Virus record (IMG/VR): IMGVR_UViG_2660238008_000002
Length of the DNA: 15,544 nt
Reading direction: 5' to 3' (one strand)
Origin: a virus
Lineage: Duplodnaviria; Heunggongvirae; Uroviricota; Caudoviricetes
The position numbers and the translations under genes are program-made. Shown piece by piece: positions 1 to 15,544 of the stretch. The notes beneath the pieces were generated by a model that saw only the letters and a list, made by a program, of their open reading frames with translations, ran no database searches and was not told the origin of the DNA. Positions within the stretch are counted from its first letter, which is position 1, and every line of letters begins with the position of its first letter.

Positions 1-1
1 G

Positions 2-73
2 GCAGTGAGAGCAGAGATAGCGCTGATGTCCGGCGGTGCTTTTGCCGTTACGCACCACCCCGTCAGTAGCTGA
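2..73 (+). CDS. Possible 3' end of ynfC-like gene (partial, start lies outside window)
   Basis: Open frame from window edge to TGA at 71-73, convergent with speG as in the K-12 layout recalled from memory. Only 23 codons visible and no recognisable motif. Confidence 0.3.
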
Positions 74-161
74 ACAGGAGGGACAGCTGATAGAAACAGA
101 AGCCACTGGAGCACCTCAAAAACACCATCATACACTAAATCAGTAAGTTGGCAGCATCACC

Positions 162-722
162 CTATTGTGCGGTCGGCTTCAGGAGAGTCTGACCCGGTGT
201 TTTGTGCTCTGCCAGATACTGATGCTGGAATATACACATGCGAATGGCATTACGATATTGACCATTAATAAAGAACTCGTGCATCAATTCACCTTCAACC
301 GAAAAGCCAAGCTTGCGGTAAATGTGAATCGCTTTTTCATTCTCTTTATCAACGATCAGATACAGCTTATAGAGATTGAGAACGGTAAAGCCATAGTCCA
401 TTGCTAATTTGGCGGCACGGGTTGCCAGACCTTTCCCCTGATACTCCGGGGAGATAATTATCTGAAATTCTGCGCGGCGATGAACATGGTTAATTTCCAC
501 CAGCTCCACCAGACCGGCTTTTTCGCCGTCACATTCCACCACAAAGCGCCGTTCGCTCTGATCGTGAATATGCTTATCATACAGATCAGAGAGTTCAACA
601 AAGGCTTCGTAGGGTTCCTCAAACCAGTAACGCATCACACTGGCGTTATTGTCGAGTTGATGTACATAGCGTAAATCTTCACGCTCCAGCGGGCGTAGCT
701 TAACACTGTGGGCGCTTGGCAT
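162..722 (-). CDS. speG: Spermidine N1-acetyltransferase
   Basis: 186-aa ORF whose full sequence ([16 protein letters not shown]...) I recognise as E. coli SpeG, a GNAT-family acetyltransferase. SD-like AAGGA lies upstream of the ATG at 722 on the minus strand. Confidence 0.95.
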
Positions 723-756
723 AACGTGTCCTTACATTCCTTAAATCAATAACAGG

Positions 757-1098
757 TTAGGGGGTAATAACGCGGCCAGTTCGACGGTCCAGGCAGCGCA
801 AAGTATTGGGCTCCCAGTAGGCATTGATGTTGGCGCTTTGCTCACATTTATCGCGGTTATCAAAAGCGGCGTCGGCTTTATCCCACTCTTTTTCAGTGCG
901 TTTATTCACTTTCTGGCGCAGATTGCGCGTGTCATTCCATTGCTCTTTTTCCATAGCGGCGTGCTGGCGGCTTTGTGCACTGTCGCCAGACTCAATCACC
1001 AGTTTGTTAGTTTCGGCATGAACAGTTGTGCTCAATGCCAGTGCGCAAGGCAGCAGAATAGCGAGCAGGCCGATTCGTTTGCTGAGAGTGATTTTCAT
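757..1098 (-). CDS. ynfB: UPF0482 family secreted protein YnfB
   Basis: 113-aa ORF with N-terminal signal peptide ([28 protein letters not shown]), recognised as YnfB. Sits immediately upstream of speG on the same strand, matching the ynfB-speG operon. Confidence 0.9.
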
Positions 1099-1232
1099 AA
1101 TTCATTCCCTGTATGAATGATTAAAGGTGATTCTACACCATCCACTGCGGACGCAAAACGTACCAGGAGGGTGTTTATATTGATGATATTATGTCGCCCT
1201 ATAACTATACATGATGTCAATAAGAGACAAAG

Positions 1233-1559
1233 ATGATTAAAACAACGTTACTATTTTTTGCTACTGCGCTGTGTGAAATTATTGGATGCTTTCTGCCCTG
1301 GTTGTGGTTAAAACGAAACGCCAGTATCTGGCTGTTGCTTCCGGCGGGGATTTCACTGGCGCTGTTTGTCTGGTTGTTAACGTTGCATCCAGCGGCGAGT
1401 GGGCGTGTTTACGCGGCTTATGGTGGCGTTTATGTCTGCACGGCGTTGATGTGGCTGCGCGTTGTGGATGGCGTGAAACTGACTCTTTATGACTGGACGG
1501 GTGCGTTGATTGCGCTTTGCGGCATGTTGATCATTGTTGCGGGCTGGGGGCGCACGTAG
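1233..1559 (+). CDS. ynfA: UPF0060 small inner-membrane protein YnfA
   Basis: 108-aa highly hydrophobic ORF ([26 protein letters not shown]...), recognised as YnfA. Divergent from ynfB. Confidence 0.9.
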
Positions 1560-1764
1560 GAACATAAATCCATTTTATCAATAAGATAAGAGGAAGTGTC
1601 AGCTGACAAAAGGTATTCTATTTCATCTTTTGTCAACCATTCACAGCGCAAATATACGCCTTTTTTTGTGATCACTCCGGCTTTTTTCGATCTTTATACT
1701 TGTATGGTAGTAGCTCAGTTGCGTAGATTTCATGCATCACGACAAGCGATGTAAGGAATCGAAC

Positions 1765-2979
1765 ATGAAGATCGTAAAGGCTGAAGTTTTTGTTACCTGT
1801 CCGGGGCGTAATTTCGTCACATTAAAAATCACCACTGAGGACGGTATTACGGGCCTTGGGGATGCCACCCTCAATGGACGTGAGCTTTCCGTGGCCTCTT
1901 ATTTGCAGGATCACCTTTGTCCGCAGCTTATTGGTCGCGATGCGCACCGTATCGAAGATATCTGGCAGTTTTTCTATAAAGGTGCTTACTGGCGTCGCGG
2001 TCCGGTTACGATGTCGGCCATTTCAGCGGTTGATATGGCGCTGTGGGATATTAAAGCCAAAGCTGCCAACATGCCGCTTTACCAGTTACTCGGCGGCGCG
2101 TCTCGTGAAGGGGTGATGGTTTATTGCCATACCACCGGTCACAGTATTGATGAAGCTCTGGATGATTATGCCCGTCATCAAGAGCTTGGATTCAAAGCCA
2201 TCCGCGTGCAGTGCGGAATCCCTGGTATGAAAACCACCTACGGCATGTCGAAAGGTAAAGGTCTGGCTTATGAACCCGCAACCAAAGGACAGTGGCCGGA
2301 AGAGCAGCTGTGGTCGACGGAGAAATACCTCGATTTCATGCCGAAATTGTTTGACGCGGTACGTAACAAGTTTGGTTTTAATGAACATTTGCTGCATGAC
2401 ATGCACCATCGCTTAACGCCTATTGAAGCGGCGCGCTTTGGTAAAAGCATTGAAGATTATCGCATGTTCTGGATGGAAGACCCGACGCCTGCGGAAAACC
2501 AGGAATGCTTCCGTCTCATTCGCCAACATACCGTCACACCCATCGCAGTGGGTGAAGTCTTCAACAGCATCTGGGACTGCAAACAACTGATTGAAGAGCA
2601 ACTCATCGATTATATCCGCACCACGCTGACCCATGCAGGCGGAATTACCGGTATGCGCCGGATTGCCGATTTTGCTTCGCTGTATCAGGTACGTACTGGC
2701 TCACACGGTCCTTCCGATTTGTCACCAGTCTGCATGGCTGCGGCGCTGCACTTTGATCTGTGGGTCCCCAATTTCGGTGTCCAGGAATACATGGGTTATT
2801 CCGAACAAATGCTCGAAGTCTTCCCGCACAACTGGACTTTCGATAACGGCTATATGCATCCGGGAGACAAACCGGGTCTTGGTATCGAATTCGATGAAAA
2901 GCTGGCGGCGAAATATCCCTATGAACCTGCTTATCTACCAGTCGCACGTCTGGAAGATGGCACGCTGTGGAACTGGTAA
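1765..2979 (+). CDS. rspA: Starvation-sensing protein RspA (enolase superfamily, mannonate dehydratase-like)
   Basis: ORF recognised as RspA. I chose the ATG at 1765 ([10 protein letters not shown]...) because AAGGAA at 1753-1758 sits 6 nt upstream and it gives the expected 404 aa; the track ORF starts earlier at 1732 with no SD. Confidence 0.95.
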
Positions 2980-2990
2980 GGAGTAAGATA

Positions 2991-4010
2991 ATGAAAAGCA
3001 TATTAATTGAAAAACCGAATCAACTGGCGATTGTCGAACGTGAAATACCCACCCCGTCAGCGGGTGAAGTACGAGTAAAAGTGAAACTTGCCGGAATTTG
3101 TGGTTCAGATAGCCATATTTATCGTGGGCATAATCCTTTTGCGAAATATCCGCGCGTCATTGGTCATGAATTCTTTGGCGTCATTGATGCAGTGGGTGAA
3201 GGCGTGGAAAGCGCCAGAGTCGGTGAACGTGTTGCTGTCGATCCGGTGGTCAGCTGTGGGCATTGCTATCCGTGCTCTATAGGTAAACCGAACGTTTGTA
3301 CGACACTGGCTGTATTAGGTGTGCACGCTGACGGTGGTTTCAGTGAATATGCCGTGGTTCCGGCAAAAAATGCGTGGAAAATTCCTGAAGCAGTGGCCGA
3401 TCAATATGCGGTAATGATCGAACCTTTTACCATTGCGGCTAACGTAACCGGACATGGTCAACCGACTGAAAATGATACCGTTCTGGTTTATGGTGCCGGT
3501 CCAATCGGCCTGACGATCGTTCAGGTATTAAAAGGCGTCTATAACGTTAAAAATGTGATTGTTGCCGATCGCATTGATGAACGACTGGAAAAAGCGAAAG
3601 AGAGCGGGGCTGACTGGGCGATTAATAACAGCCAGACACCGCTTGGCGAGATTTTCACTGAAAAAGGCATCAAGCCGACATTAATTATCGATGCGGCTTG
3701 TCATCCTTCTATCCTGAAAGAGGCCGTAACGCTGGCTTCTCCAGCGGCACGTATTGTATTGATGGGGTTCTCCAGTGAACCGTCTGAAGTGATTCAGCAA
3801 GGAATTACCGGAAAAGAACTCTCTATTTTCTCTTCACGCTTAAATGCAAATAAATTCCCGATCGTTATCGACTGGTTAAGTAAAGGGTTAATTAAACCAG
3901 AAAAATTAATTACCCATACGTTTGATTTCCAGCATGTTGCTGATGCCATTAGTTTATTTGAACAGGATCAAAAACATTGCTGCAAAGTCTTACTCACTTT
4001 TTCTGAATAA
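2991..4010 (+). CDS. rspB: Zn-dependent alcohol dehydrogenase-family protein RspB
   Basis: ORF recognised as RspB, with the MDR motif GICGSDSHIYRGHNPF and a GAGPIGL Rossmann motif. Start chosen at ATG 2991 (MKSILIEK...) with AAGGAG at 2977-2982, giving 339 aa; tightly linked to rspA. Confidence 0.95.
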   Translation: MKSILIEKPNQLAIVEREIPTPSAGEVRVKVKLAGICGSDSHIYRGHNPFAKYPRVIGHEFFGVIDAVGEGVESARVGERVAVDPVVSCGHCYPCSIGKPNVCTTLAVLGVHADGGFSEYAVVPAKNAWKIPEAVADQYAVMIEPFTIAANVTGHGQPTENDTVLVYGAGPIGLTIVQVLKGVYNVKNVIVADRIDERLEKAKESGADWAINNSQTPLGEIFTEKGIKPTLIIDAACHPSILKEAVTLASPAARIVLMGFSSEPSEVIQQGITGKELSIFSSRLNANKFPIVIDWLSKGLIKPEKLITHTFDFQHVADAISLFEQDQKHCCKVLLTFSE

Positions 4011-4025
4011 TACCAATAACGGCGA

Positions 4026-4054
4026 GTAAGTAGTACGCATCTTACCTCTTTTTT
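4026..4054 (+). terminator. Weak candidate intrinsic terminator after rspB
   Basis: Short hairpin gtaag(4026-4030) / cttac(4041-4045) with a 10-nt loop, followed by ctctttttt. The stem is only 5 bp and AT-rich, so this is tentative. Confidence 0.3.
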
Positions 4055-4067
4055 AGAGATAACCATT

Positions 4068-4178
4068 ATGACAATAGAAAAACACGAAAGAAGCACTAAG
4101 GATTTGGTGAAAGCAGCAGTATCGGGATGGCTGGGCACTGCGCTTGAATTTATGGATTTCAAGAGTCATACGTGTTAA
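4068..4178 (+). pseudogene. ydfJ: N-terminal fragment of MFS (MHS-family) transporter gene ydfJ, truncated by prophage insertion
   Basis: Short ORF MTIEKHERSTKDLVKAAVSGWLGTALEFMDF... carries the N-terminal G-x3-E-x-x-DF signature of ProP/ShiA-type symporters and then runs into a stop within about 8 codons. In K-12, ydfJ is known to be split by Qin with its first ~28 codons next to rspB. Confidence 0.6.
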
Positions 4179-4200
4179 CTATTTGATAAATATTAAATTA
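4150..4200. other. Approximate chromosome/prophage junction (att core expected here)
   Basis: ydfJ-like coding potential ends about 4160 and the integrase stop codon is at 4198-4200, so the att core must lie in this AT-rich interval. The exact core cannot be defined without the other prophage end. Confidence 0.5.
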
Positions 4201-5493
4201 ATTTTTCATTGCTTCGTTATGGGGCATGGTTGGGGCAAACTCGCTTAACTGTGTATTTAACAAAGCTACCTGTGCATTATTGTTTTCAGACATCCATTTT
4301 CCGTATACCTGAAATACCATTTGCGCATCTGCATGGCCCATCTGGTTTGCTATAAATGCCGGGTTAGCACCAGCTGTCAGCGACCAGCAGGCATAAGTAT
4401 GTCTCGACTGATATGATTTTCGATGGCGGAGTCCGGCACGTTTTATCGCTGCGTCCCACATCTGCCTTATTGAGTCAACGGTAAAATGGTCACCATAATT
4501 TTTTACTCTCGCTGACACTTCAGGTTGAAAAACAAAGGTGCATTTTTGTTTTTCTGTTCTGCCATACTCTCTGAGGTGAACATCAATGATATGCTCTTTG
4601 CTCAGTCTCGTTAATGTCATCTGACTCCGGAGAGCGTCGATTGCTGGCTTAATAAGATGAATGACCCGATTGGTTCCCGCCTGTGTTTTTGGTACCGTGA
4701 AACGGTCTTTTGCTAAATTTCTCCTGATCATCATTGTTCCATTTTTCAGATCTATGTCCTCCCATCCAAGTGCACACAGCTCACCAGGGCGAACGCCAGT
4801 ATAAACAGAAACACACCATAAATTTTTGGCTTGCTGATTTCTGCACGCATCGATAAGACGGATGAATTCCTCCCGCGAAAGAGGATCCGGAATGGTTCTT
4901 GATTCCTTTAATGGCGAGATCCCCTTAAACGGGTTATCTGCCAAGTAACCGTTATCAACACCAAACTGGAACACGGCGTTAAGATTTGTCATGTAATTAT
5001 TTACAGTTACAGCCGATCTCCCTGGTTGTGTAACAATATAGTTACTTTTGGGGATCTGGTATCCAGTCAGTAGCTCTTTACGAACCTCCAGTAATTTTTC
5101 TTTATTAATCGATGAGGCAAGATTTTTTTCACCGATTATGCTCAGGATATTTTTGATGACGGCACGGTATGTGTTGAGTGATGTTTTTGCGACTTCAGTT
5201 TCTTTCAGTGCCAGAAATTTTTCAGCCAGTTCTTTTATGGTTAAATCTTGTCGGGCCTCACCAAATTTTTCCAGATTGCGTGAGGAGGGAAACTGTTTTG
5301 CATAGTCGAAAACACCAGTTTTTATTGCGTAACAAACAGAGGCGCGTAGTTCACCTGCAACGCGCCTGTTTTTTGCTGTGTCAGGAACCCCCAGATTTTC
5401 CCTGACTCTTACGCCTTTATAAACAAACCAGATACGTAATTTCCCTCCATGGTTTTCCACGCCTGTCGGATATTTCATTTCAACTTCTCTCAT
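4198..5493 (-). CDS. Phage tyrosine integrase (lambdoid Int family), apparently intact
   Basis: 431-aa ORF ending next to the att junction. C-terminal catalytic region has the expected R...H-x-x-R...Y pattern (RHTYACWSL ... HADAQMVFQVYGKW). The start may instead be the ATG at 5478 (MKYPTG...), which has a purine-rich GAGAGAAG upstream. Confidence 0.9.
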   Translation of the reverse strand: MREVEMKYPTGVENHGGKLRIWFVYKGVRVRENLGVPDTAKNRRVAGELRASVCYAIKTGVFDYAKQFPSSRNLEKFGEARQDLTIKELAEKFLALKETEVAKTSLNTYRAVIKNILSIIGEKNLASSINKEKLLEVRKELLTGYQIPKSNYIVTQPGRSAVTVNNYMTNLNAVFQFGVDNGYLADNPFKGISPLKESRTIPDPLSREEFIRLIDACRNQQAKNLWCVSVYTGVRPGELCALGWEDIDLKNGTMMIRRNLAKDRFTVPKTQAGTNRVIHLIKPAIDALRSQMTLTRLSKEHIIDVHLREYGRTEKQKCTFVFQPEVSARVKNYGDHFTVDSIRQMWDAAIKRAGLRHRKSYQSRHTYACWSLTAGANPAFIANQMGHADAQMVFQVYGKWMSENNNAQVALLNTQLSEFAPTMPHNEAMKN

Positions 5494-5512
5494 TAGTTAG
5501 TGTGGCTTTTAG

Positions 5513-5764
5513 TCAAGTAAGATGACGTCTTGGTCTCGCTGATGCCTGGCGCTCAATCCAGCGATCAATTTCTTCCAGGTTGTAAAAGCATGGGCTGTTA
5601 TCCCATGGCATACCGTCATGAGCGACATGCTTATATTCCCTTCCTTCCATAAACGATTTTTCCCAGGCCTTTTTTAACGTACCTTTTTTTATTCCTTTCA
5701 GCGCAATTAACTGCTCTTCGGATACCCATTTGCCGGGAGAGACAATCATGATTACTTCGCTCAT
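5513..5764 (-). CDS. Putative excisionase / Xis-like small DNA-binding protein
   Basis: 83-aa ORF immediately upstream of int on the same strand with a 19-nt gap, which is the canonical xis position. Small and basic at the C-terminus; family not confirmed by homology. Confidence 0.55.
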   Translation of the reverse strand: MSEVIMIVSPGKWVSEEQLIALKGIKKGTLKKAWEKSFMEGREYKHVAHDGMPWDNSPCFYNLEEIDRWIERQASARPRRHLT

Positions 5765-5836
5765 CGATTTCTTTATCTCTTACATTAGACGAGCGCCGGT
5801 TGCAGAATACCAGTCACAACCGGCGACAGTTGAACA

Positions 5837-8308
5837 TTAAGAATCAGCCTGACTCGGGATCAGTTTTTGCCAGATAACTGAAACGTATTTTGCCTGGTAA
5901 CGGGCGTCATCAAGTGCATTATGGCGCTCACCTTCGAATGGAATAGCCGTTCTGGCATCGAAGTCTATGGCTTTCCCCAGCTCAACGATTGTGCGTACAT
6001 CGCGATCGTTGTAGTAACGCCACGGGCAGGGGATCCCCTGCCGTTCGTATGAACGGCGCAAAATCGTGTTGTCGAAGTTGGCTCCATTTCCCCAAACCTG
6101 AACAAAAAATTCACCGGAGTTTTCGTCGATAAATTCCCGCAATTGTAACAGTGCATCATCTAACGGGATTTCATCGGTCATAATGGCAGATTGCGCTTCG
6201 CGTGATTGCTTAAGCCACCATTTAATGGTGTCCCGATCAATGACTCCGCCAGCAGTTTCCAGATCGATAGTCTTACTAAATTCCGGTCCCATATCTCCGG
6301 TTTGCGGATCGAAAAATATTGCACCTATTGAGATGATCGGGGCATCAGGATTTTTTCCCATGGTTTCAAGGTCGATCATTAGATGGTCACACGTCCTGCT
6401 GGTGGATGTGATTTCGTGATGACCGTTCACCTTAATTGAGTGATCTGCCGTCTCGCCAGTTTCATTATCGCTATTGTGATGCTGATTGCCGCCAGTGTTC
6501 TCCTTGTGTGGATGTTCAGCGCCTTCCATTTCCTCCAGATCATCTTCCTGAACTTCAACCTGATACTCTTCATCGAATGTTTCCTGGTATGTTGCGTCGC
6601 CCATCACCGCGCCACAATCAGGGCAGTTGCCGCCGCCGGTCTGACCGCAGGCGGTGCAGACTTTTTCCACTTCCAGTTGCGCCACTGGTTCAGGCTGTTT
6701 CGTTTCTGGCTCGTTTTGTAACGCATTTGTGCTGTTTTGTTCCGCTTTTTGGTAGTTCCGTTCCGATTCATGCTGGTTCTGGTTCACAGAATCGCGGGTC
6801 TGGATCCCCTTAACCCATTTCGGATCATTCGGGTCACTAATCCCTTCAACAAATTCACCACGTGATGCAGCAAGCAACTTATCGGCGTCAGGCTGGCTGA
6901 TATTGGCTGCCTGCATAATTTTGTTTACTTCGTCAGCGGTAACTTTTATCGGCTCTGGTTGTTCTGAATCTTCAGCGGTATCTACATTTTGCGGTAAGCC
7001 CGTGTATGTGCCATTTTTTCGGGCAAAATATTCTTCTTTTGTGATTTCAGTGGCGCCAGCAGCCAGTGCCTTATCCAGACCAGAAAGTTTGTTTGCGCGA
7101 CCGTATTTTTCTCCGTCCTTATCTGCGAAGAGGAAATAGAACGGCCCCTCACGCTCTACAGATGGTTCAGCTTCCGGCGCGGTTTCATTTTTTGGGATAT
7201 CAGATACCTCAGTTTCCACTGCATCAGTTTGTGTTTCTGATGACTGGAGAACATCAACAGTGCCCAGGTCTGTTTCTTCATTCTCAAACACGCCCTTTGT
7301 CGTCAGGTATTCGCAGATATATTTGTTCAGTGCTATGGGATCTTTGTGAATGTCGATCGGACGCTCACGGACAAGGCCAAAAATAGTCTGGCGGTCGTAG
7401 CGAAGGGCATCAGGCTGTTTGCGCATTGATGCCGAGATACGCTTCCAGTCTTCGCGGTCGTTGTCGATAACTTCTTTTTTTGCCCAGCGATGGATGCTGC
7501 CGTCAATGTTTCCGGCATCCACATCACCAGGCCAGAGAGCGTAGGCCAGTTCGTCATCCAGTGTTTTCCATGTCTGCTTGTATTCGCGATGAATGGCAGC
7601 AATGACCGGGCTGATTTTTCCTGTTGAATTTTCAGTGTACTGTTGATTGGTTCTGGCGCGGGCGAGATCAACAACAGACGTGTATTTTCCGGTTTCCTTG
7701 CGTTCACCTTCGCGACGTTTTTTCCAGATGCGCATCTCTGCCTGAATTTCGGGCCATTTAGCACCAGGAATACATTTATGCTTAACCCACCCAATGGCGT
7801 GCAACTTAAGCTCCGGATACATGGCGTTAACTTCTGGCATTTTCATCAACGCTTCAACGATATGTCCGTCGAATGTTGCCATGTCTTCCTGCAACAATTC
7901 CTGTGCGCTAATAACCATATCAACGGTGATGTTTTCACATGTGTCGAACTTAACCATGACAGCGTTCTGTACTTCAGGGGCCAGCTTGTCAAAAGTGACG
8001 TTCATCGGATCGGATTCAGTCTCAACCGGGACAAAAGAAGCAGACTCCTCATCCCAGCGGTTTTCCTGCATATATTCAGCATCCCATGAATCGAGGGCAG
8101 GGCGGGGTATGCCAGGTTTATCCTCGCAGACAATAAATTTATAAGCGCAGTCCTGAGCAGCCGGATAATGTTCCAGGAACTGCCAGTGAAATTTTGCTCG
8201 AGCACGGCGTTCGTCGCCAGCTTCAATGGCTGTGGCTACAGCCACAGCGCCTTCTTCCCTTGTTGCCAGTTCGTCAGGAATAGCGGCGCAAATAAAGACT
8301 TTACTCAT
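5837..8308 (-). CDS. Large prophage exonuclease (YdfE-like, often annotated exodeoxyribonuclease VIII) with C-terminal DnaQ-like DEDDh 3'-5' exonuclease domain
   Basis: 823-aa ORF. C-terminal region shows the three DEDDh motifs: Exo I in LMIDLETMG, Exo II in WGNGANFDNTIL, Exo III H-x4-D in HNALDDARYQ. A Cys4 zinc-ribbon-like motif (CTACGQTGGGNCPDCG) and an acidic low-complexity linker lie in the middle. N-terminus (MSKVFICAAIPDELATREEG...) resembles K-12 YdfE as I recall it. Confidence 0.8.
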   Translation of the reverse strand: MSKVFICAAIPDELATREEGAVAVATAIEAGDERRARAKFHWQFLEHYPAAQDCAYKFIVCEDKPGIPRPALDSWDAEYMQENRWDEESASFVPVETESDPMNVTFDKLAPEVQNAVMVKFDTCENITVDMVISAQELLQEDMATFDGHIVEALMKMPEVNAMYPELKLHAIGWVKHKCIPGAKWPEIQAEMRIWKKRREGERKETGKYTSVVDLARARTNQQYTENSTGKISPVIAAIHREYKQTWKTLDDELAYALWPGDVDAGNIDGSIHRWAKKEVIDNDREDWKRISASMRKQPDALRYDRQTIFGLVRERPIDIHKDPIALNKYICEYLTTKGVFENEETDLGTVDVLQSSETQTDAVETEVSDIPKNETAPEAEPSVEREGPFYFLFADKDGEKYGRANKLSGLDKALAAGATEITKEEYFARKNGTYTGLPQNVDTAEDSEQPEPIKVTADEVNKIMQAANISQPDADKLLAASRGEFVEGISDPNDPKWVKGIQTRDSVNQNQHESERNYQKAEQNSTNALQNEPETKQPEPVAQLEVEKVCTACGQTGGGNCPDCGAVMGDATYQETFDEEYQVEVQEDDLEEMEGAEHPHKENTGGNQHHNSDNETGETADHSIKVNGHHEITSTSRTCDHLMIDLETMGKNPDAPIISIGAIFFDPQTGDMGPEFSKTIDLETAGGVIDRDTIKWWLKQSREAQSAIMTDEIPLDDALLQLREFIDENSGEFFVQVWGNGANFDNTILRRSYERQGIPCPWRYYNDRDVRTIVELGKAIDFDARTAIPFEGERHNALDDARYQAKYVSVIWQKLIPSQADS

Positions 8309-8401
8309 TTTGTTTTAACCTCATGACAGATTTAAGGATGAACAAATCCCTGCCATTGCTGGCATATAAGAATGAAACCGGATATTTATTACGGAACTGT
8401 T

Positions 8402-8593
8402 TTAAAGACCTGCCGGGATTTCGATATTATCCTGGTGAATAACTTTATCGACCGGGTAACAGTTACCGGGAATTTTCTGTTCGGTTGCTGCAGTCATACA
8501 CTCCTGCATTGTCCTGTGCACACTGACTGCAATATCAACTGGCTCTCCGGAAACAAGAAAAACTGTCAGAACAAGCACAAATGCTGAATTCAT
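8402..8593 (-). CDS. ydfD: Small membrane lysis protein YdfD
   Basis: 63-aa protein (MNSAFVLVLTVFLVSGEPVDIAVSV...) with an N-terminal hydrophobic segment, recognised as Qin YdfD. Its ATG overlaps the dicB stop (ATGA at 8590-8593). Confidence 0.8.
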   Translation of the reverse strand: MNSAFVLVLTVFLVSGEPVDIAVSVHRTMQECMTAATEQKIPGNCYPVDKVIHQDNIEIPAGL

Positions 8594-8778
8594 TGTGCAC
8601 ATCCTTTTGGCATCAGACGTAAACGAGCCAGCATTGAAACAATGCATATTTTATTTAATAGCTCCCGTTCTTGTTTTCTCTTGTTAATGGCATCTTCAGT
8701 AAATACTGGGTTACTGATAGTGACACCAATTTCAAAACAACCTTCAGACGTATTAACGTTTGGTAATAACGTTTTCAT
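8590..8778 (-). CDS. dicB: Cell-division inhibitor DicB (MinC activator)
   Basis: 62-aa protein MKTLLPNVNTSEGCFEIGVTISNPVFTEDAINKRKQERELLNKICIVSMLARLRLMPKGCAQ recognised as DicB. GAGGA SD upstream on the minus strand. The track ORF (97 aa) extends upstream of this start. Confidence 0.85.
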   Translation of the reverse strand: MKTLLPNVNTSEGCFEIGVTISNPVFTEDAINKRKQERELLNKICIVSMLARLRLMPKGCAQ

Positions 8779-8952
8779 TATCGCGTCCTCAACAATGAAT
8801 TTTGTGATGCAGTGCCTGGTGCCTCCAGGTGACGTTAACCAGTTAACAATTAACGCCGGATACAGAGAATCCACCCATAACACTGTTTTTGGTTTTAACT
8901 GTTCCGCGTGCGCTCAGCCGCATTCACCACATCACAAAATTCACTTTAAAAA

Positions 8953-9005
8953 GGGCGGCAGAGCAGTCACGGAGTAAAACTGATACCGCCAAACGTCACC
9001 AGAAA
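8953..9005 (-). ncRNA. dicF: DicF small regulatory RNA (antisense regulator of ftsZ and other mRNAs)
   Basis: Reverse complement of 8953-9005 reads TTTCTGGTGACGTTTGGCGGTATCAGTTTTACTCCGTGACTGCTCTGCCGCCC, matching DicF as I recall it, followed by a T-run. Lies upstream of dicB as in Qin. Confidence 0.8.
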
Positions 9006-9383
9006 ATTGATAACAGAGGGCGTTGCAGCGGGGTTGTCACTTAAGCGTATGGTCAACCTGACAACCCGGTGTCCTCAACGGGGAAGGAATAACCCCGCCA
9101 TACTTACCGCCGCGCCATTTCGCGGGTTGCCACAACCGGAAGCGCACGGTCGACGAAAATTTAACGACAGGCTATCTATGAACCAGCTACCTCGCCGTGC
9201 GCTTTCGCGTTATGGTCTGACTTTTCAGGGCAATATCCTTTCAGTAAACTGTCAGTGCCGGATGCTCACCCGTGTCCGGCGCACGCACTCCACCTCACCC
9301 GTGGAGAACTCCTTAATTACTAACCTTAGCTTTGTTGATTAGCTACTAACGCGGGTAGCCGCGTGTCCACTATTGCTGGGTAA

Positions 9384-10313
9384 GATCAACCATCTTACGG
9401 TGAACTGATCCAGATTGATGGCTCACCTCATGACTGGTTTGAAAATCGAGGCCCCAGATGTACACTGATCGTTTTCATTGATGATGCCACCAGTGCGTTG
9501 ATGGCGTTGCGTTTTGTGCCTGCTGAAACAACCCGGGCTTACATGGAAACCCTCCGGGGTTACCTTAATGATCATGGCGTACCGCTCGCTCTCTACTCTG
9601 ATAGACACAGTATATTCAGGGTAAATAACCCAGAGCGGGAAGGTGAGCTGACCCAGTTCACTCGTGCGATAAAGACACTGGGCATCGAGCCAATCCATGC
9701 CAACAGCCCGCAGGCAAAAGGGCGGGTAGAGCGCGCCAATCAGACACTACAGGACAGGCTGGTCAAAGAAATGCGGCTTCAGAATATCAGTGATATTGAA
9801 ACAGCAAATGCATGGTTGCCGACTTTTATTGAAGCCTATAACAACCGGTTCGCTACGTCGCCTCGTACTACTGATAATGCTCATCTTGATGTGCACCATT
9901 CTGAAGAGGAACTGGGTTATATCTTCAGCCTACAGGCGAAGCGCGTTCTGTCTAAAAATCTCACTTTCCAGTACAAAAGCAGTGCGTTTCAGGTACGCAG
10001 TGAGAGCCGGGGATATCGACTTAGGCATTCGGTTGTTACTGTATGCGAGAACTTTGACGGTGAAATTAACGTTCTGTATGACGGGAAAGCGCTGGGCTGG
10101 GAAAAGTATGTTGATGGCCCGGAGCCTATACCACTGGATGATGAAAAGAGTGTCCATGAACGAGTGGATAATGCCCGTATTGATTTACGCTCAAAATACT
10201 ATGTTAAACCTAAAGCTGACCATCCCTGGCTTACGCGCCGAACGCAAAGTCATCAGCAAGTTAAGCCCCCGAAGTTACCTAAAAAGAAGCCTGATCCCGA
10301 TAAAAAAGATTGA
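9384..10313 (+). pseudogene. 5'-truncated DDE integrase/transposase (rve-type catalytic core; IS481/ISNCY-like, family uncertain)
   Basis: Reading frame is open from 9384 just after an in-frame TAA. Candidate catalytic residues: first D in IQIDGSPHDWFE, second D in LYSDRHSIF, E in KGRVERANQTLQDRL. No ATG or GTG precedes the first catalytic motif (first standard start is TTG 9498 / ATG 9501) and no N-terminal DNA-binding domain is present. May correspond to the K-12 intK region. Confidence 0.6.
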
Positions 10314-10367
10314 AACCAAGATCGATTCGGTTGAGTGCATATCCATTCATAGGGTAGATTCTTAAGT

Positions 10368-10433
10368 CGCGTTTCTGGTGTTCATTTTCGGGTGGTTTGT
10401 TACTTGTTTTACCGGGGATATGCCAGAAACGCG
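10368..10433. repeat. Perfect 11-bp inverted repeat (cgcgtttctgg / ccagaaacgcg) with 44-bp spacer
   Basis: 10368-10378 is the exact reverse complement of 10423-10433. Located about 55 bp downstream of the integrase-fragment stop. No T-run follows, so it is not a classic intrinsic terminator. Confidence 0.7.
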
Positions 10434-10710
10434 CTGAGTCAGTCTGGGCGGTGCGCGTAATGAGGCGTTATGGTAAATAGCCTATGCTAATGTCCGCTAA
10501 GAGCAAGAAGCGGAAGTTGGCAGTTTTGTGGACTGTCCCCACAAAAGTGACTACAGAAATAGTTGCAATTCATAATTGATCATGGGTTGTCAGTTAAACT
10601 CGTGGCGATTTAAATAGACTAATTGGGAGTGCGTCCATTACTTATATCTTGTAATGTTAACTATCAGAAATGATACAAAGATAATATGTCTTTAAAGAAA
10701 AGGCTGATGG

Positions 10711-10735
10711 CGAAAAGTGGCCCGATGAGGGCCAC
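10711..10735 (-). terminator. Intrinsic terminator downstream of flxA
   Basis: On the minus strand: GTGGCCC-tcatc-GGGCCAC followed by CTTTTCG, 15 nt after the flxA stop. Confidence 0.5.
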
Positions 10736-10749
10736 AATACGGCTGTCAC

Positions 10750-11082
10750 TTAGACGTAAATATCAATGGTGCCAGCGGTATTTGTATCGTCTTTTTTCTC
10801 TTCTTTTTTATCAGGCTGAACTGTCGCGTCTTCATTCTTTTTCTCTGCCTGCTGCCTTAACAACTGCTCCAGTTGAGCCCAGAGGCTTTCAATTTGCTTC
10901 TGTACCAATGCAGCCATTTCTTTTTTCTGCTGTGTCGTCATCCCCTCTTCCGATGAGATTTTCCCAAGCTTTTCAGTCAGCACCTGAATTTGTCTTGTGA
11001 TTTTGGCTATTTCTGATGTTCCTTCCGGGGCGGAGTTGTTTGAAATAACGGTTGAGGTATTTCCCTGAATTGTGACAGACAT
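10750..11082 (-). CDS. flxA: FlxA (FliA-regulated prophage protein, coiled-coil rich)
   Basis: 110-aa ORF (MSVTIQGNTSTVISNNSAPEGTSEIAKITRQIQVLTEKLGK...) recognised as FlxA. AAGGAG SD upstream and a sigma-28 promoter (next feature). Confidence 0.85.
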   Translation of the reverse strand: MSVTIQGNTSTVISNNSAPEGTSEIAKITRQIQVLTEKLGKISSEEGMTTQQKKEMAALVQKQIESLWAQLEQLLRQQAEKKNEDATVQPDKKEEKKDDTNTAGTIDIYV

Positions 11083-11105
11083 AGATTTCTCCTTTTAAAA
11101 AAGCA

Positions 11106-11132
11106 CTATCGGCATGAACAAAAAAATCTTTA
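11106..11132 (-). promoter_or_regulatory. Sigma-28 (FliA) promoter of flxA
   Basis: Minus strand reads TAAAGATT-N11-GCCGATAG, against the consensus TAAAGTTT-N11-GCCGATAA, positioned about 25-50 nt upstream of the flxA ATG. Confidence 0.6.
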
Positions 11133-11284
11133 ATCGTATTTCTTGTGTCATTAATTGTTTGATGTTCAGATTGTTTTCCTCGCGGGCTGGCGCGCCTCAG
11201 AAAGTAAAGCTTGTTGACAGGGGTAAACGTTCGGCAATAATTTTCTGCCGCATGCGGGTGTTGCATAAAACGTGTTACGTTCCT

Positions 11285-11590
11285 TTATCGACAGGTCAGG
11301 TCACCGCTCACCCGCCGACGAGAAAGCAACACTGACATGCTAAAGCAAAAAATAGATGAATAAGTTGAGTTGTGCATATGTAGCCTGACCGTCACAAAGT
11401 ATATGGTGTCTGTACCAGTAAGATGATGGCCGGACTCTTTAAAAACGAGCTGACCTGCACAATACAGGATGGACTTAGCAATGGCTGCTCCTGGCAGAAA
11501 GCGGACAGTGATCACCGTTCTTACGACTACTTTCTGACTTCCTTCGTGACTTGCCCTAAGCATGTTGTAGTGCGATACTTGTAATGACAT
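11285..11590 (-). CDS. Hypothetical ORF (possibly the annotated ydfV equivalent); doubtful
   Basis: 101-aa ORF filling the flxA-relB gap. No convincing SD, its 5' end overlaps the relBE promoter/operator, and the composition is not protein-like. Listed only because a 101-aa ydfV is annotated in this position in K-12. Confidence 0.2.
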   Translation of the reverse strand: MSLQVSHYNMLRASHEGSQKVVVRTVITVRFLPGAAIAKSILYCAGQLVFKESGHHLTGTDTIYFVTVRLHMHNSTYSSIFCFSMSVLLSRRRVSGDLTCR

Positions 11591-11610
11591 TTGTAATTAC
11601 AAGAGGTGTA
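11552..11610 (+). promoter_or_regulatory. relBE promoter and relO operator
   Basis: -35 TTGCCC (11552-11557), 17-bp spacer, -10 GATACT (11575-11580). Operator repeats cTTGTAATgacatTTGTAATTACAAg span 11579-11603, overlapping the start site region, then SD AGAGGTG before the ATG at 11615. Confidence 0.7.
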
Positions 11611-11614
11611 AGAC

Positions 11615-11854
11615 ATGGGTAGCATTAACCTGCGTATTGACGATGAACTTAAAGCGCGTTCTTACGCCGCGCTTGAAAAAATGGGTGTAACTCCTTCTGA
11701 AGCGCTTCGTCTCATGCTCGAGTATATCGCTGACAATGAACGCTTGCCGTTCAAACAGACACTCCTGAGTGATGAAGATGCTGAACTTGTGGAGATAGTG
11801 AAAGAACGGCTTCGTAATCCTAAGCCAGTACGTGTGACGCTGGATGAACTCTGA
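11615..11854 (+). CDS. relB: RelB antitoxin
   Basis: 79-aa ORF MGSINLRIDDELKARSYA...PKPVRVTLDEL recognised as RelB. Stop overlaps the relE start (TGATG). Confidence 0.95.
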   Translation: MGSINLRIDDELKARSYAALEKMGVTPSEALRLMLEYIADNERLPFKQTLLSDEDAELVEIVKERLRNPKPVRVTLDEL

Positions 11855-12141
11855 TGGCGTATTTTCTGGATTTTGACGAGCGGGCACTAAAGGAATGGCG
11901 AAAGCTGGGCTCGACGGTACGTGAACAGTTGAAAAAGAAGCTGGTTGAAGTACTTGAGTCACCCCGGATTGAAGCAAACAAGCTCCGTGGTATGCCTGAT
12001 TGTTACAAGATTAAGCTCCGGTCTTCAGGCTATCGCCTTGTATACCAGGTTATAGACGAGAAAGTTGTCGTTTTCGTGATTTCTGTTGGGAAAAGAGAAC
12101 GCTCGGAAGTATATAGCGAGGCGGTCAAACGCATTCTCTGA
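11854..12141 (+). CDS. relE: RelE mRNA interferase toxin
   Basis: 95-aa ORF MAYFLDFDERALKEWRKLGSTVREQLKKKL... recognised as RelE, translationally coupled to relB. Confidence 0.95.
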   Translation: MAYFLDFDERALKEWRKLGSTVREQLKKKLVEVLESPRIEANKLRGMPDCYKIKLRSSGYRLVYQVIDEKVVVFVISVGKRERSEVYSEAVKRIL

Positions 12142-12212
12142 ACCAAAGCATGACATCTCTGTTTCGCACCGAAGGTGACACTTCTGCTTTGCGTTGACAG
12201 GAGAAGCAGGCT

Positions 12213-12368
12213 ATGAAGCAGCAAAAGGCGATGTTAATCGCCCTGATCGTCATCTGTTTAACCGTCATAGTGACGGCACTGGTAACGAGGAAAGACCTCT
12301 GCGAGGTACGAATCCGAACCGGCCAGACGGAGGTCGCTGTCTTCACAGCTTACGAACCTGAGGAGTAA
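12213..12368 (+). CDS. hokD: Hok-family small membrane toxin HokD (RelF)
   Basis: 51-aa ORF MKQQKAMLIALIVICLTVIVTALVTRKDLCEVRIRTGQTEVAVFTAYEPEE found by manual translation; it is below the size cutoff of the ORF track. Third gene of the relBEF operon; SD GGAG upstream. Confidence 0.85.
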   Translation: MKQQKAMLIALIVICLTVIVTALVTRKDLCEVRIRTGQTEVAVFTAYEPEE

Positions 12369-12438
12369 GAGACTCGGCGAGTGAGAAATCCCTCGCCACC
12401 TCTGATGTGGCAGGCATCCTCAACGCACCCGCACTTAA

Positions 12439-12463
12439 CCCGCTTCGGCGGGTTTTTGTTTTT
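12439..12463 (+). terminator. Intrinsic terminator after hokD
   Basis: cccgc-ttcg-gcggg hairpin followed by tttttgttttt. Confidence 0.6.
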
Positions 12464-12584
12464 ATTTTCAACGCATTTGAAGTTCTGGATGGTGCCGGAA
12501 TAGAATCAAAAATACTTAAGTAGCGCGCAGGGATAAGAGGGATGGTCCCTTAAAGGGGAGAGCTAATTATCCGGAAGGATTCTG

Positions 12585-12836
12585 ATGATGAACATCGAAG
12601 AACTGCGTAAAATTTTTTGTGAAGATGGCCTCTATGCTGTGTGCGTTGAAAATGGAAATATTGCTAGTCATTACCGCATTGTGTGTTTGCAAAAAAATGG
12701 GGCTGCGTTAATTAATTATGTGGATGCCCGAGTGACGGACGGATTTATCTTGCGCGACGGTGAGTTTGTCACTTCATTACAGGCATTGAAAGAGATCGGA
12801 ATAAAAGCTGGCTTTTCTGCTTTTTCAGAAGAATAA
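12585..12836 (+). CDS. rem: Rem-like small prophage protein, function unknown
   Basis: 83-aa ORF with AAGGA SD, in the position of rem (between hokD and ydfU) in K-12 Qin, with matching length. Confidence 0.65.
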   Translation: MMNIEELRKIFCEDGLYAVCVENGNIASHYRIVCLQKNGAALINYVDARVTDGFILRDGEFVTSLQALKEIGIKAGFSAFSEE

Positions 12837-12902
12837 ACTCATCTACAATCTTGCGCGGGGCTGAACTCCCGCTGAGTAACACCGTGCCACCGGAGAAAAC
12901 CG

Positions 12903-13181
12903 ATGGCACGCAACGCAAAATATTACAATCATGATAATTCGACCGTTCTTGCCCACACGCACGAGCGGTATTCTCACGCATTTAAGTCAGACTGGTACCA
13001 GCATCCCCCATGCACTGAAGAACAGGCCGAATGGCTCATTCAGTGTTACCGCAGGCGCGGATGCGAGGTTAAAAAAGCCCTTAGCCTCGACTACCGTCAC
13101 TGGATAATCTCCGTCAGGCTTCCTTACTCCGAACGCCCACCGCGTCCGTCCCGCACATTCCAGCAACGCATCTGGAGGTAA
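12903..13181 (+). CDS. Hypothetical 92-aa protein, translationally coupled to ydfU
   Basis: ATG at 12903 preceded by GGAGAAAA. Its stop at 13179-13181 sits within the ydfU ribosome-binding region. No recognisable domain; His/Cys/Arg-rich. Confidence 0.4.
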   Translation: MARNAKYYNHDNSTVLAHTHERYSHAFKSDWYQHPPCTEEQAEWLIQCYRRRGCEVKKALSLDYRHWIISVRLPYSERPPRPSRTFQQRIWR

Positions 13182-13182
13182 C

Positions 13183-14232
13183 GTGCGGGTATTACTTCGA
13201 CCTGTTCTGGTACCGGAACTCGGGCTGGTGATCGTTAAGCCGGGCCGTGAACCCATGCCGGTATTCCACAATACCCGGTTACTGGTGGAGCCGGAACCGA
13301 AAAGCATGCGTAATCTGCCGTCCGGGGTCGTTCCTGCCGCTCGCCAGCCGCTGGTGGAAGACAAAACATTGCTGCCGTTTTTCAGTAACGCACGGGTGAT
13401 TCGTGCTGCTGGTGGTGCTGGTGCATTGTCTGACTGGCTGTTGCGCCATATTAAATCCTGCCAGTGGCCACACGGCGATTATCATCACAGCGAAACCGTC
13501 ATTCACCGTTATGGTACCGGCGCAATGGTGTTGTGCTGGCACTGCGACAACCAGCTGCGTGACCAGACATCCGAATCACTCGAGCAACTAGCTCATCAAA
13601 ACCTGTCAGCATGGATGATTGACGTCATCGGTCACGCAATAAGCGGTACGCAGGAGCGTGAATTATCTCTGGCTGAATTATCCTGGTGGGCGGTCCGCAA
13701 TCAGGTGGCGGACGCGCTACCGGAAGCGGTATTACGTCGTTCGCTGGGGTTGCGTGCGGAAAAAATCCGCTCAATGTACCGTGAAAGCGACATCGTACCG
13801 GGAGAGCAGACCGCCACCAGCATACTGAAACAGCGCACAAAAAATCTTGCACCGTTGCCTCACGCCCACCAGCAACAAAACCCATCACAAGAAAAGACGG
13901 TGGTAAGCATCACCGTTGATCCAGAGTCTCCGGAATCTTTCATGAAGCTGCCTAAACGTCACCGTTGGGTTAAGGAGAAATACACACGCTGGGTTAAGAC
14001 ACAGCCGTGTGCTTGCTGCGGTATGCCAGCCGACGATCCGCATCATCTGATTGGTCACGGGCAGGGCGGAATGGGAACCAAAGCACATGATCTCTTTGTG
14101 TTGCCTTTGTGCAGAAAGCATCACGACGAGTTGCATACGGATACCGTGGCATTTGAAGAGAAGTATGGCTCCCAACTGGAGCTGATTTTTCGATTTATCG
14201 ATCGCGCGCTGGCAATTGGTGTGCTGGCCTAA
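13183..14232 (+). CDS. ydfU: YdfU-like prophage protein with C-terminal HNH-like zinc-finger motif (NinG/Rap-like position)
   Basis: 349-aa ORF starting at GTG 13183 with GGAGG 4 nt upstream. C-terminus carries CACCG...[10 protein letters not shown]...[12 protein letters not shown], a CxxC...HH...C..HH pattern typical of HNH-type nucleases. Located just upstream of Q, as ninG is in lambda. Confidence 0.75.
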
Positions 14233-14249
14233 TTTTGTGGAGTAAGTTG

Positions 14250-14627
14250 ATGCGTGATATTCAGATGGTTCTTGAGCGTTGGGGGGCATGGGCGGCTAAT
14301 AATCATGAAGATGTGACCTGGTCGTCCATTGCCGCCGGTTTTAAGGGATTAATTCCTTCAAAAGTAAGATCTCGTCCGCAATGCTGTGACGATGACGCGA
14401 TGATCATTTGTGAATGTATGGCTCGCCTGAAAAAAAACAACAGCGATTTACATGATTTATTGGTGGACTATTATGTCGGCGGCATGACTTTTATGGCGCT
14501 TGCACGTAAGCATGGGCGATCTGATTGTTGGGTTGGCAGGATGCTCCAGAAAGCTGAGGGCGTAGTGGAGGGCATGCTGATGGTGTTGGATCTCCGATTG
14601 GAGATGGATGCTGATTGTTCGAAATAA
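14250..14627 (+). CDS. Late-gene antiterminator Q (short QuuD / YbcQ-like type)
   Basis: 125-aa protein from ATG 14250 ([38 protein letters not shown]...), closely resembling DLP12 QuuD as I recall it. GGAG sits 7 nt upstream. The track ORF begins at an upstream TTG. Confidence 0.8.
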
Positions 14628-14639
14628 TTAAAGGAAAAG

Positions 14640-14668
14640 TTGCTGTCTGATTTTCATTAGTCTAACAT
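14640..14668 (+). promoter_or_regulatory. Candidate late promoter (pR'-like) downstream of Q
   Basis: TTGCTG (14640-14645), 17-bp spacer, TAACAT (14663-14668), in the expected position between Q and the downstream terminator. Sequence-based guess only. Confidence 0.3.
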
Positions 14669-14727
14669 TTTAAATGTTGGAATCGCAACGTAGTTATTAT
14701 CATATAACAGCTTGTTTCCTGATTTAG

Positions 14728-14754
14728 CCAGCCTCCCCAAAGGCTGGTTTTTTT
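14728..14754 (+). terminator. Intrinsic terminator (tR'-like) downstream of Q
   Basis: ccagcc-tccccaaa-ggctgg hairpin followed by seven T residues. Confidence 0.6.
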
Positions 14755-14782
14755 CTAATAAGTATCATTTCGGGTGGGGATT

Positions 14783-15307
14783 TTATTGTTTAACCCATAA
14801 TAGTTCATTGACATTGAATCCCAACTTTTGAGCGGTACGCACATAGTCTGCTTTTACATTATCTGGAATAGTTTGGGTCCTTGCCAGAATCCATAGGTAT
14901 TCTCTGTTCGGACCACTGACAAGAGCATACTTATACTCATCATCCAGTTTGATTACATTATAGCCACCATAGAAGGGGCCAAAAAACGAAACTTTCAACG
15001 CTGCAGTTTTAGTATCTCCAGTAAAGTATGCTTTACCTTCGCTCTCGCTCCATTTGTTTTTCGTTGGATCGTATCCACGGTTAAGTACGCGAATCCCTCC
15101 GTCGTTCCGTTTTTCATAAGTAGCGCTGACCTGTTCCAGACCACGTTCGAACCAGTTCTCGAGGCGAGCTATTTCATACCATTTTCCGAGGTAGCGGTTG
15201 GCGTCAAAATTTGTAATCGGCTGCACACCTTTAGGTGGTGTCGGGGCCTTACATGCTATAAGAGTGAAAGAGAGTGCAATGCCAGTCAACACAGGCCATA
15301 ACTTCAT
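14783..15307 (-). CDS. Blc-like bacterial lipocalin, outer-membrane lipoprotein
   Basis: 174-aa ORF with lipoprotein signal peptide and lipobox (LIAC). Lipocalin motifs NFDANRYLGKWYEIAR and FFGPFYGGYNVIKLD resemble chromosomal E. coli Blc; I estimate roughly 60-65% identity from memory. Confidence 0.85.
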   Translation of the reverse strand: MKLWPVLTGIALSFTLIACKAPTPPKGVQPITNFDANRYLGKWYEIARLENWFERGLEQVSATYEKRNDGGIRVLNRGYDPTKNKWSESEGKAYFTGDTKTAALKVSFFGPFYGGYNVIKLDDEYKYALVSGPNREYLWILARTQTIPDNVKADYVRTAQKLGFNVNELLWVKQ

Positions 15308-15385
15308 AATAAATCCTGTACTTTTGATAGTTGAGAGTAAGTATGAAAGATAGATGAGTACGACCGATCACTTAAAGAACTTTCC

Positions 15386-15544
15386 TGTAGATTCAATCTG
15401 TCAATGCAACACCCCTTTCAATTATCTCTTTCGGTGTTTTGAACTTCAGTGTCTTTCTCGGTCTGTTGTTTAGCTGAGCAGCAACCAGATCTAGTTCATG
15501 TTGAGTATATTGGGCAAGACATGTCTTTTTAGGAAAGTACTGCC
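15386..15544 (-). mobile_element. IS30 end (terminal inverted repeat plus 3' end of transposase gene), element continues beyond window
   Basis: TGTAGATTCAATCTGTCAATGCAACA at 15386-15411 matches the IS30 terminal repeat. Minus-strand translation of 15393-15544 ends ...QYTQHELDLVAAQLNNRPRKTLKFKTPKEIIERGVALTD*, which I recognise as the IS30 transposase C-terminus. Confidence 0.8.

Follow-up and report, generated by a model that had tools for sequence, protein, structure and literature searches.

A 5,755-bp deletion in a Qin-type cryptic prophage has left the small RNA gene dicF and the genes dicB and ydfD in place and has removed dicA, dicC and the intergenic region that carries the promoter dicBp and the DicA operators, with a 31-bp remnant of an IS3 end marking the junction. 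The module left behind is probably a promoterless, essentially silent remnant of ordinary prophage decay. An earlier reading of the sequence (the original prediction) had proposed that dicF-dicB-ydfD is present without the dicA/dicC region and its promoter, and this was borne out by the Rfam and Pfam matches, by the null results of tblastn and blastn, and by the absence of the corresponding segment of an intact Qin prophage; the cause, a single deletion with an IS3-end remnant at its junction, had been missed.

The dicF-dicB-ydfD module and the deletion beside it

The window, that is, the whole stretch of 15,544 nucleotides that was analysed, carries a Qin-type cryptic prophage with rspB on one side and a blc-like lipocalin gene on the other, and the prophage adjoins speG-ynfB-ynfA-rspA-rspB (Table 1). 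The exonuclease, xis, int, flxA, ydfV, relBE, hokD, rem, ydfU and Q genes of the K-12 Qin prophage are also found in the window, and, unlike in K-12, the integrase, the excisionase and the 823-aa exonuclease are intact. In K-12, intQ is presumably a pseudogene and ydfE truncated by an IS. With ends or remnants of four IS types (IS1, IS3, IS30 and ISEsa1) in 15.5 kb, the genome looks IS-rich.

Table 1. Features of the window and, in the last four rows, the EA7 segments absent from other deletion alleles (positions refer to the window unless EA7 is named).
Feature	Position	Strand	Basis or remark
IS1 end	1-161		directly after the speG stop codon, where other strains have ynfC
Tyrosine integrase, intact, 431-aa ORF	4198-5493	minus	
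Excisionase (xis), intact	5513-5764	minus	
823-aa exonuclease, intact	5837-8308	minus	
ydfD, lysis protein YdfD, 63 aa, intact	8402-8593	minus	PF07358 (DUF1482), 91.1 bits (cut-off 25), full length
dicB, cell-division inhibitor DicB, 62 aa, intact	8590-8778	minus	PF05358, 136.8 bits (cut-off 27), 62/62 positions
dicF, small RNA gene	8953-9004	minus	RF00039 model positions 1-52/52; own terminator hairpin and U-run
Native ydfC-dicF spacer, untranslated leader of the dicBF transcript	9005-9345	minus	alignment to intact Qin
Last 12 nt of ydfC, left deletion edge	9346-9357	minus	EA7 ydfC 9685-9903; homology ends at EA7 9696
IS3 left inverted repeat remnant, 31 bp	9358-9388	minus, pointing to dicF	identity to annotated IS3 end
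ISEsa1 (IS1202-like, ISNCY) transposase pseudogene fragment, without 5' part, right deletion edge	9389-10313	plus	
flxA hairpin terminator, GUGGCCC-UCAUC-GGGCCAC then UUUUCG	10735-10711	minus	between flxA and dicF
flxA, nearest gene co-oriented with dicF	10750-11082	minus	annotation in matching genomes
ydfV	beside flxA	minus	
relB, relE, hokD, rem, small ORF, ydfU, Q antiterminator	right part, in that order	plus	
rem, antirepressor of DicA, intact	12585-12836	plus	annotation; EA7 18648-18899 maps here
Lipocalin gene	right end of window	minus	
IS30 end	15387-15544		after the lipocalin gene
S3 deletion	EA7 9750-15450		whole IS3-family element at junction; keeps 66 nt of ydfC
YPE10 deletion	EA7 9202-14635		dicF lost
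2020CK-00188 deletion	EA7 9202-14918		dicF lost
MEI7BO1-21 deletion	EA7 9203-15310		dicF lost

DicF was the sole Rfam match in the whole window (RF00039; score 76.7 bits, gathering score 48; E = 8.8e-16), and both dicB and ydfD are annotated as such in matching genomes. The two genes overlap by ATGA at 8590-8593 (tcat on the plus strand), where the ATG of ydfD occupies 8593-8591 and the TGA of dicB 8592-8590, and one Shine-Dalgarno-like motif could be read from the sequence for each of them, that of ydfD being AAGGA. The original prediction had singled out this overlap and the antagonism between the two products; both are real, but they have been published for K-12, in which DicB antagonizes the lysis caused by YdfD (PMC8835842), and are not specific to the window. 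The sequences of dicF, dicB, ydfD, their spacing, the overlap and the leader are those of the K-12 system, with 99.9% identity to the Qin prophages of many strains. The intactness of dicF, dicB and ydfD is uninformative on function: with only 8 differences from an intact Qin prophage, there has been too little time since the deletion for decay to set in.

About 380 bp of non-coding DNA had been described upstream of dicF; what had not been seen is its composition, as it consists of 353 bp of native Qin leader (9005-9357, including the 12 nt of ydfC) with one mismatch to the intact prophage, followed by the 31 bp of IS3. The leader is predicted to fold extensively, and, judged from the published sizes of DicF species, should hold at about position 9141 the RNase III site that yields the 190-nt species (PMC10448788).

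The deletion was observed directly by alignment to the intact Qin prophage of strain EA7 (locus L004), which is among the best-matching complete genomes and served as the reference. The window aligned in two blocks, 162-9357 to EA7 501-9696 with 99.96% identity and 9389-15386 to EA7 15452-21449 with 99.93% identity, with 8 mismatches in total over 15.2 kb, and EA7 9697-15451 (5,755 bp) is missing from the window. Gone with this segment are ydfC (except its last 12 nt), ydfB, ydfA, dicA and dicC, the dicA-ydfA intergenic region holding dicBp and the DicA operators, a YdaT-like gene, an O-like gene, DUF977, methyltransferase pseudogenes and a sok-like RNA, and, at the right edge, the first 395 nt of the ISEsa1 transposase pseudogene. 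The EA7 proteins DicA, DicC, YdfA, YdfB, YdfC and YdaT-like gave no significant tblastn match within the window; the best E-values were 1.5 with DicA and 0.007 with DicC, and the DicC match is a chance one of 16 residues inside rspA. Blastn of the missing 5,755 bases likewise gave zero matches within the window.

The window differs from the K-12 dicBF operon by the loss of dicBp, the operators, dicA, dicC, ydfA, ydfB and, except for 12 nt, ydfC. No dicBp with DicA operators upstream of ydfA, no ydfA, ydfB or ydfC gene beyond those 12 nt, and no divergent dicA and dicC beside the operon were found within it; among the components of the Qin immunity switch (DicA/DicC, CI/Cro-like), the Rem antirepressor gene is there. 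In particular, the interval 9006-9383, in which a degenerate ydfC and the normal promoter might have been concealed, contains the last 12 nt of ydfC only and no such promoter. No Pfam family was matched by the rem product. The rem gene survives despite the loss of dicA, and encodes an orphan regulator if Rem has no targets besides DicA.

The junction itself consists of the filler gccgcgtgtccactattgctgggtaagatca at 9358-9388, which reads TGATCTTACCCAGCAATAGTGGACACGCGGC on the minus strand. Window positions 9356-9388 are identical at 33/33 nt to the IS3 end in locus L008, on the orfA side and 65 nt upstream of orfA, and the 31 bp are thus a remnant of IS3, not an element. The left junction sits 31 bp inside IS3, away from the IS terminus, and shares a TA microhomology with Qin at 9356-9357. 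On the right side, what had been described as an integrase fragment on the other strand most probably belongs to the ISEsa1 transposase pseudogene and not to a phage integrase: its nucleotide sequence is 99.9% identical to that of annotated ISEsa1 pseudogenes, its translation begins in the DDE region (…IQIDGSPHDWF…), its rve_3 match of 24.4 bits stays under the Pfam cut-off of 26.5, and the annotated ydfW (10164-10313) is the tail of the same pseudogene. The fragment is truncated at both ends and so is not a functional element.

Expression of the remaining module

In K-12, the dicBF transcript begins at dicBp, located upstream of ydfA, and DicF and dicB arise from it when RNase III and RNase E process it; dicBp is repressed 22-fold by DicA, Rem is the antirepressor of DicA, and no evidence was obtained for another promoter in the operon, though one had been suggested in an earlier publication (Ragunathan et al., J Bacteriol 2023, PMC10448788). 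Because DicF and DicB of K-12 are made only by processing of the dicBp transcript, the module in the window is expected to be silent. Promoter searches on the dicF strand point the same way. A consensus scan of 8300-11700 at a threshold of 9/12 found no sigma-70-like site on the minus strand and six on the plus strand, and relaxed minus-strand scans of 8740-11150 gave weak candidates with a maximum of 8.5/13 points, none of them at the IS3 junction, although such scans may miss weak or non-sigma-70 promoters. As a counterpoint to silence, Cam et al. reportedly suggested in 1988 a promoter upstream of dicB. Between the two alternatives of the original prediction, that the module has lost its promoter and is silent or that a new upstream signal drives it outside DicA control, the missing promoter-like sites and the dicBp-only expression in the literature favour the first, and the second finds no support in the sequence.

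The events that led to this arrangement can be proposed from the junction. In a first step, the ISEsa1 fragment would have received an IS3 insertion; a later illegitimate deletion, with a 2-bp TA microhomology, would have had one end 31 bp within IS3 and the other at the end of ydfC. Such a deletion would leave the leader, dicF, dicB, ydfD, the processing sites, the terminator and the ribosome-binding sites intact and take the promoter away, so that the module would be silent apart from stray read-through. This event would also account for the loss of the otherwise essential repressor gene dicA: with the promoter gone at the same time, the toxic genes were disarmed.

We regard it as unlikely that the module is still expressed free of DicA, either by read-through from the sigma-28 promoter of flxA or by the chance presence of a weak promoter in the DNA antisense to ISEsa1 or at the IS3 junction, with low and differently regulated amounts of DicF, DicB and YdfD. 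The gene flxA is co-oriented with dicF and is preceded by a sigma-28-type motif, TAAAGATT-N11-GCCGATAG (11132-11106, minus strand), which closely matches the consensus of sigma-28 (FliA) promoters and fits a FliA-dependent flxA. The U-tract of the flxA terminator is short, and with four U residues the terminator may leak; against this, its GC-rich 7-bp hairpin (a 61-nt segment with it folds at -18.1 kcal/mol, z = -2.5) stands between flxA and the module, and Rho termination would be promoted by the ~1.7 kb from flxA to dicF, an interval with zero annotated minus-strand genes that runs in part antisense to the IS pseudogene. The intact leader with its processing sites also speaks for expression. 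The IS3 remnant points to dicF and keeps a TGGACA hexamer, but a junction promoter built on this hexamer was rejected since no usable -10 element follows it, and no minus-strand site reaches 9/12. Moreover, induction of the dicBF operon cuts viability more than 100-fold (Balasubramanian et al., PMC5069750), and this toxicity of unrepressed, constitutive dicBF disfavours expression without DicA, yet the allele persists in two sources. That the deletion has actually rewired the module, so that leaky flxA sigma-28 read-through or a weak junction promoter provides low, DicA-independent DicF, DicB and YdfD, seems very improbable; if it were true, the flagellar regulon would replace the prophage switch as the system to which division control or phage exclusion is coupled.

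There is equally little probability that the immunity region has moved elsewhere in the genome, or that a DicA-like repressor of another prophage acts on the module. The IS-rich look of the genome would suit such a relocation, but collinearity with EA7 places all of the Qin remnant, from integrase to Q, within the window, and it holds no second immunity region. A repressor encoded elsewhere would also meet no operator upstream of dicF, since dicBp and its operators are deleted, and the junction is shaped like a simple deletion. Other dicBF copies or DicA-like repressors may lie outside the window, beyond the IS1 and IS30 ends that bound it.

If the module is silent, several consequences are expected: DicF would regulate neither ftsZ nor manXYZ, DicB would not mediate exclusion of ManYZ-dependent phages, and the Rem antirepressor would be orphaned. 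A carrier strain would be a natural dicBp/dicA null, which could be used to test dicBp-independent expression of DicF and DicB and to look for targets of Rem besides DicA.

Occurrence of the allele and other deletions of the Qin immunity region

The allele is marked by the 37-mer TAGCTACTAACGCGGGTAGCCGCGTGTCCACTATTGC. Its junction was covered in none of the 5,426 complete E. coli genomes, and the exact junction was absent from the scanned GTDB species representatives and IMG/VR. A metagenome scan did give a match, the human-gut contig L009 (ENA USZI01004858, 3x coverage), in which the Qin|IS3|ISEsa1 double junction is the same and 21 of the 5,068 positions aligned to the window are mismatched. 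Since the same double junction is found in this independent gut contig, the junction is a real allele. The alternative that it arose by faulty or chimeric assembly, and that in the real genome ydfC and ISEsa1 are separated by an intact immunity region or by a complete IS3, might appeal to the absence of the junction from complete E. coli genomes and to the window starting in IS1 and ending in IS30, as is common in short-read contigs, but it can be rejected as scarcely credible: an independent metagenome assembly with 21 mismatches has the identical double junction, the 31-bp filler is shorter than a read so that both junctions have to fall within individual reads, the left one sits 31 bp into IS3 and off the IS end, hence outside the reach of a repeat collapse, and the 2 bp shared there by Qin and IS3 are too little for a k-mer join.

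Positions 1-1119 of L009 match no complete E. coli genome and join Qin inside the integrase gene (at window position 4351); this first 1.1 kb could stem from a chimeric low-coverage contig or from a further rearrangement. A look-up with the exact Xis protein of the window returned no further carriers of the deletion. One draft contig with the exact Xis (L014 1-241, GCA_043607585.2) has its start only 241 nt upstream of dicB, slightly past where dicF is expected, and a further repeat or IS insertion may lie at this break. At large, the dicF-dicB-ydfD module was found in 3,779 E. coli genomes, 977 of which match the dicA allele that was used; the gap between these numbers is no measure of deletions because immunity regions are mosaic, and most of the alignments stop at ydfA.

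Four more deletion alleles were found among the complete genomes, in S3, YPE10, 2020CK-00188 and MEI7BO1-21, each of which loses dicA together with dicBp. As in the window, dicA, dicC and dicBp are gone as one block in all four, and DNA proximal to dicB is fused to the ISEsa1 region; the end points vary among the alleles, those of YPE10, 2020CK-00188 and MEI7BO1-21 lying 84 nt upstream of dicB on the dicB side, and the 31-bp IS3 remnant occurs only in the window and L009. The gene dicA is on the Keio list of essential genes and is variably present among strains (PMC5992433, PMC11481867). It belongs with racR of Rac and cohE of e14 to the conditionally essential repressors of cryptic prophages, the loss of which requires that the toxic genes be inactivated too; here the promoter went with the repressor, which, as judged from a natural allele, would fit this pattern. 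The allele would be a natural example of a known rule, by which a prophage repressor that checks toxic genes cannot be lost unless the signals for their expression go too. All parts that are present belong to known families (RF00039, PF05358, PF07358, the IS3 end and the ISEsa1 pseudogene), both the module and its regulation are already well described, and this is an ordinary IS-associated decay event that matters little beyond annotation.

Two further observations concern the end points of these deletions. In S3, a different IS3-family element, with the ends TGTAGTGG…CCACTACA, abuts the ISEsa1 pseudogene (L002 11369/11370) no more than 1 nt from the position at which the IS3 remnant of the window abuts it (9388/9389), and IS3-family elements may have a hot spot of insertion here. 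Three complete genomes (loci L006, L007 and L008) have a common left end point at EA7 9201/9202 (equivalent to window position 8862), …GTTAACCAGTTAACAATTAACGCCGGATA|, which lies 84 nt upstream of the dicB ATG and has no IS at it, and their right end points differ (EA7 14636, 14919 and 15311), with microhomologies of 2-5 bp; the common end point could mark a hot spot for deletions, or the three could form a nested series.
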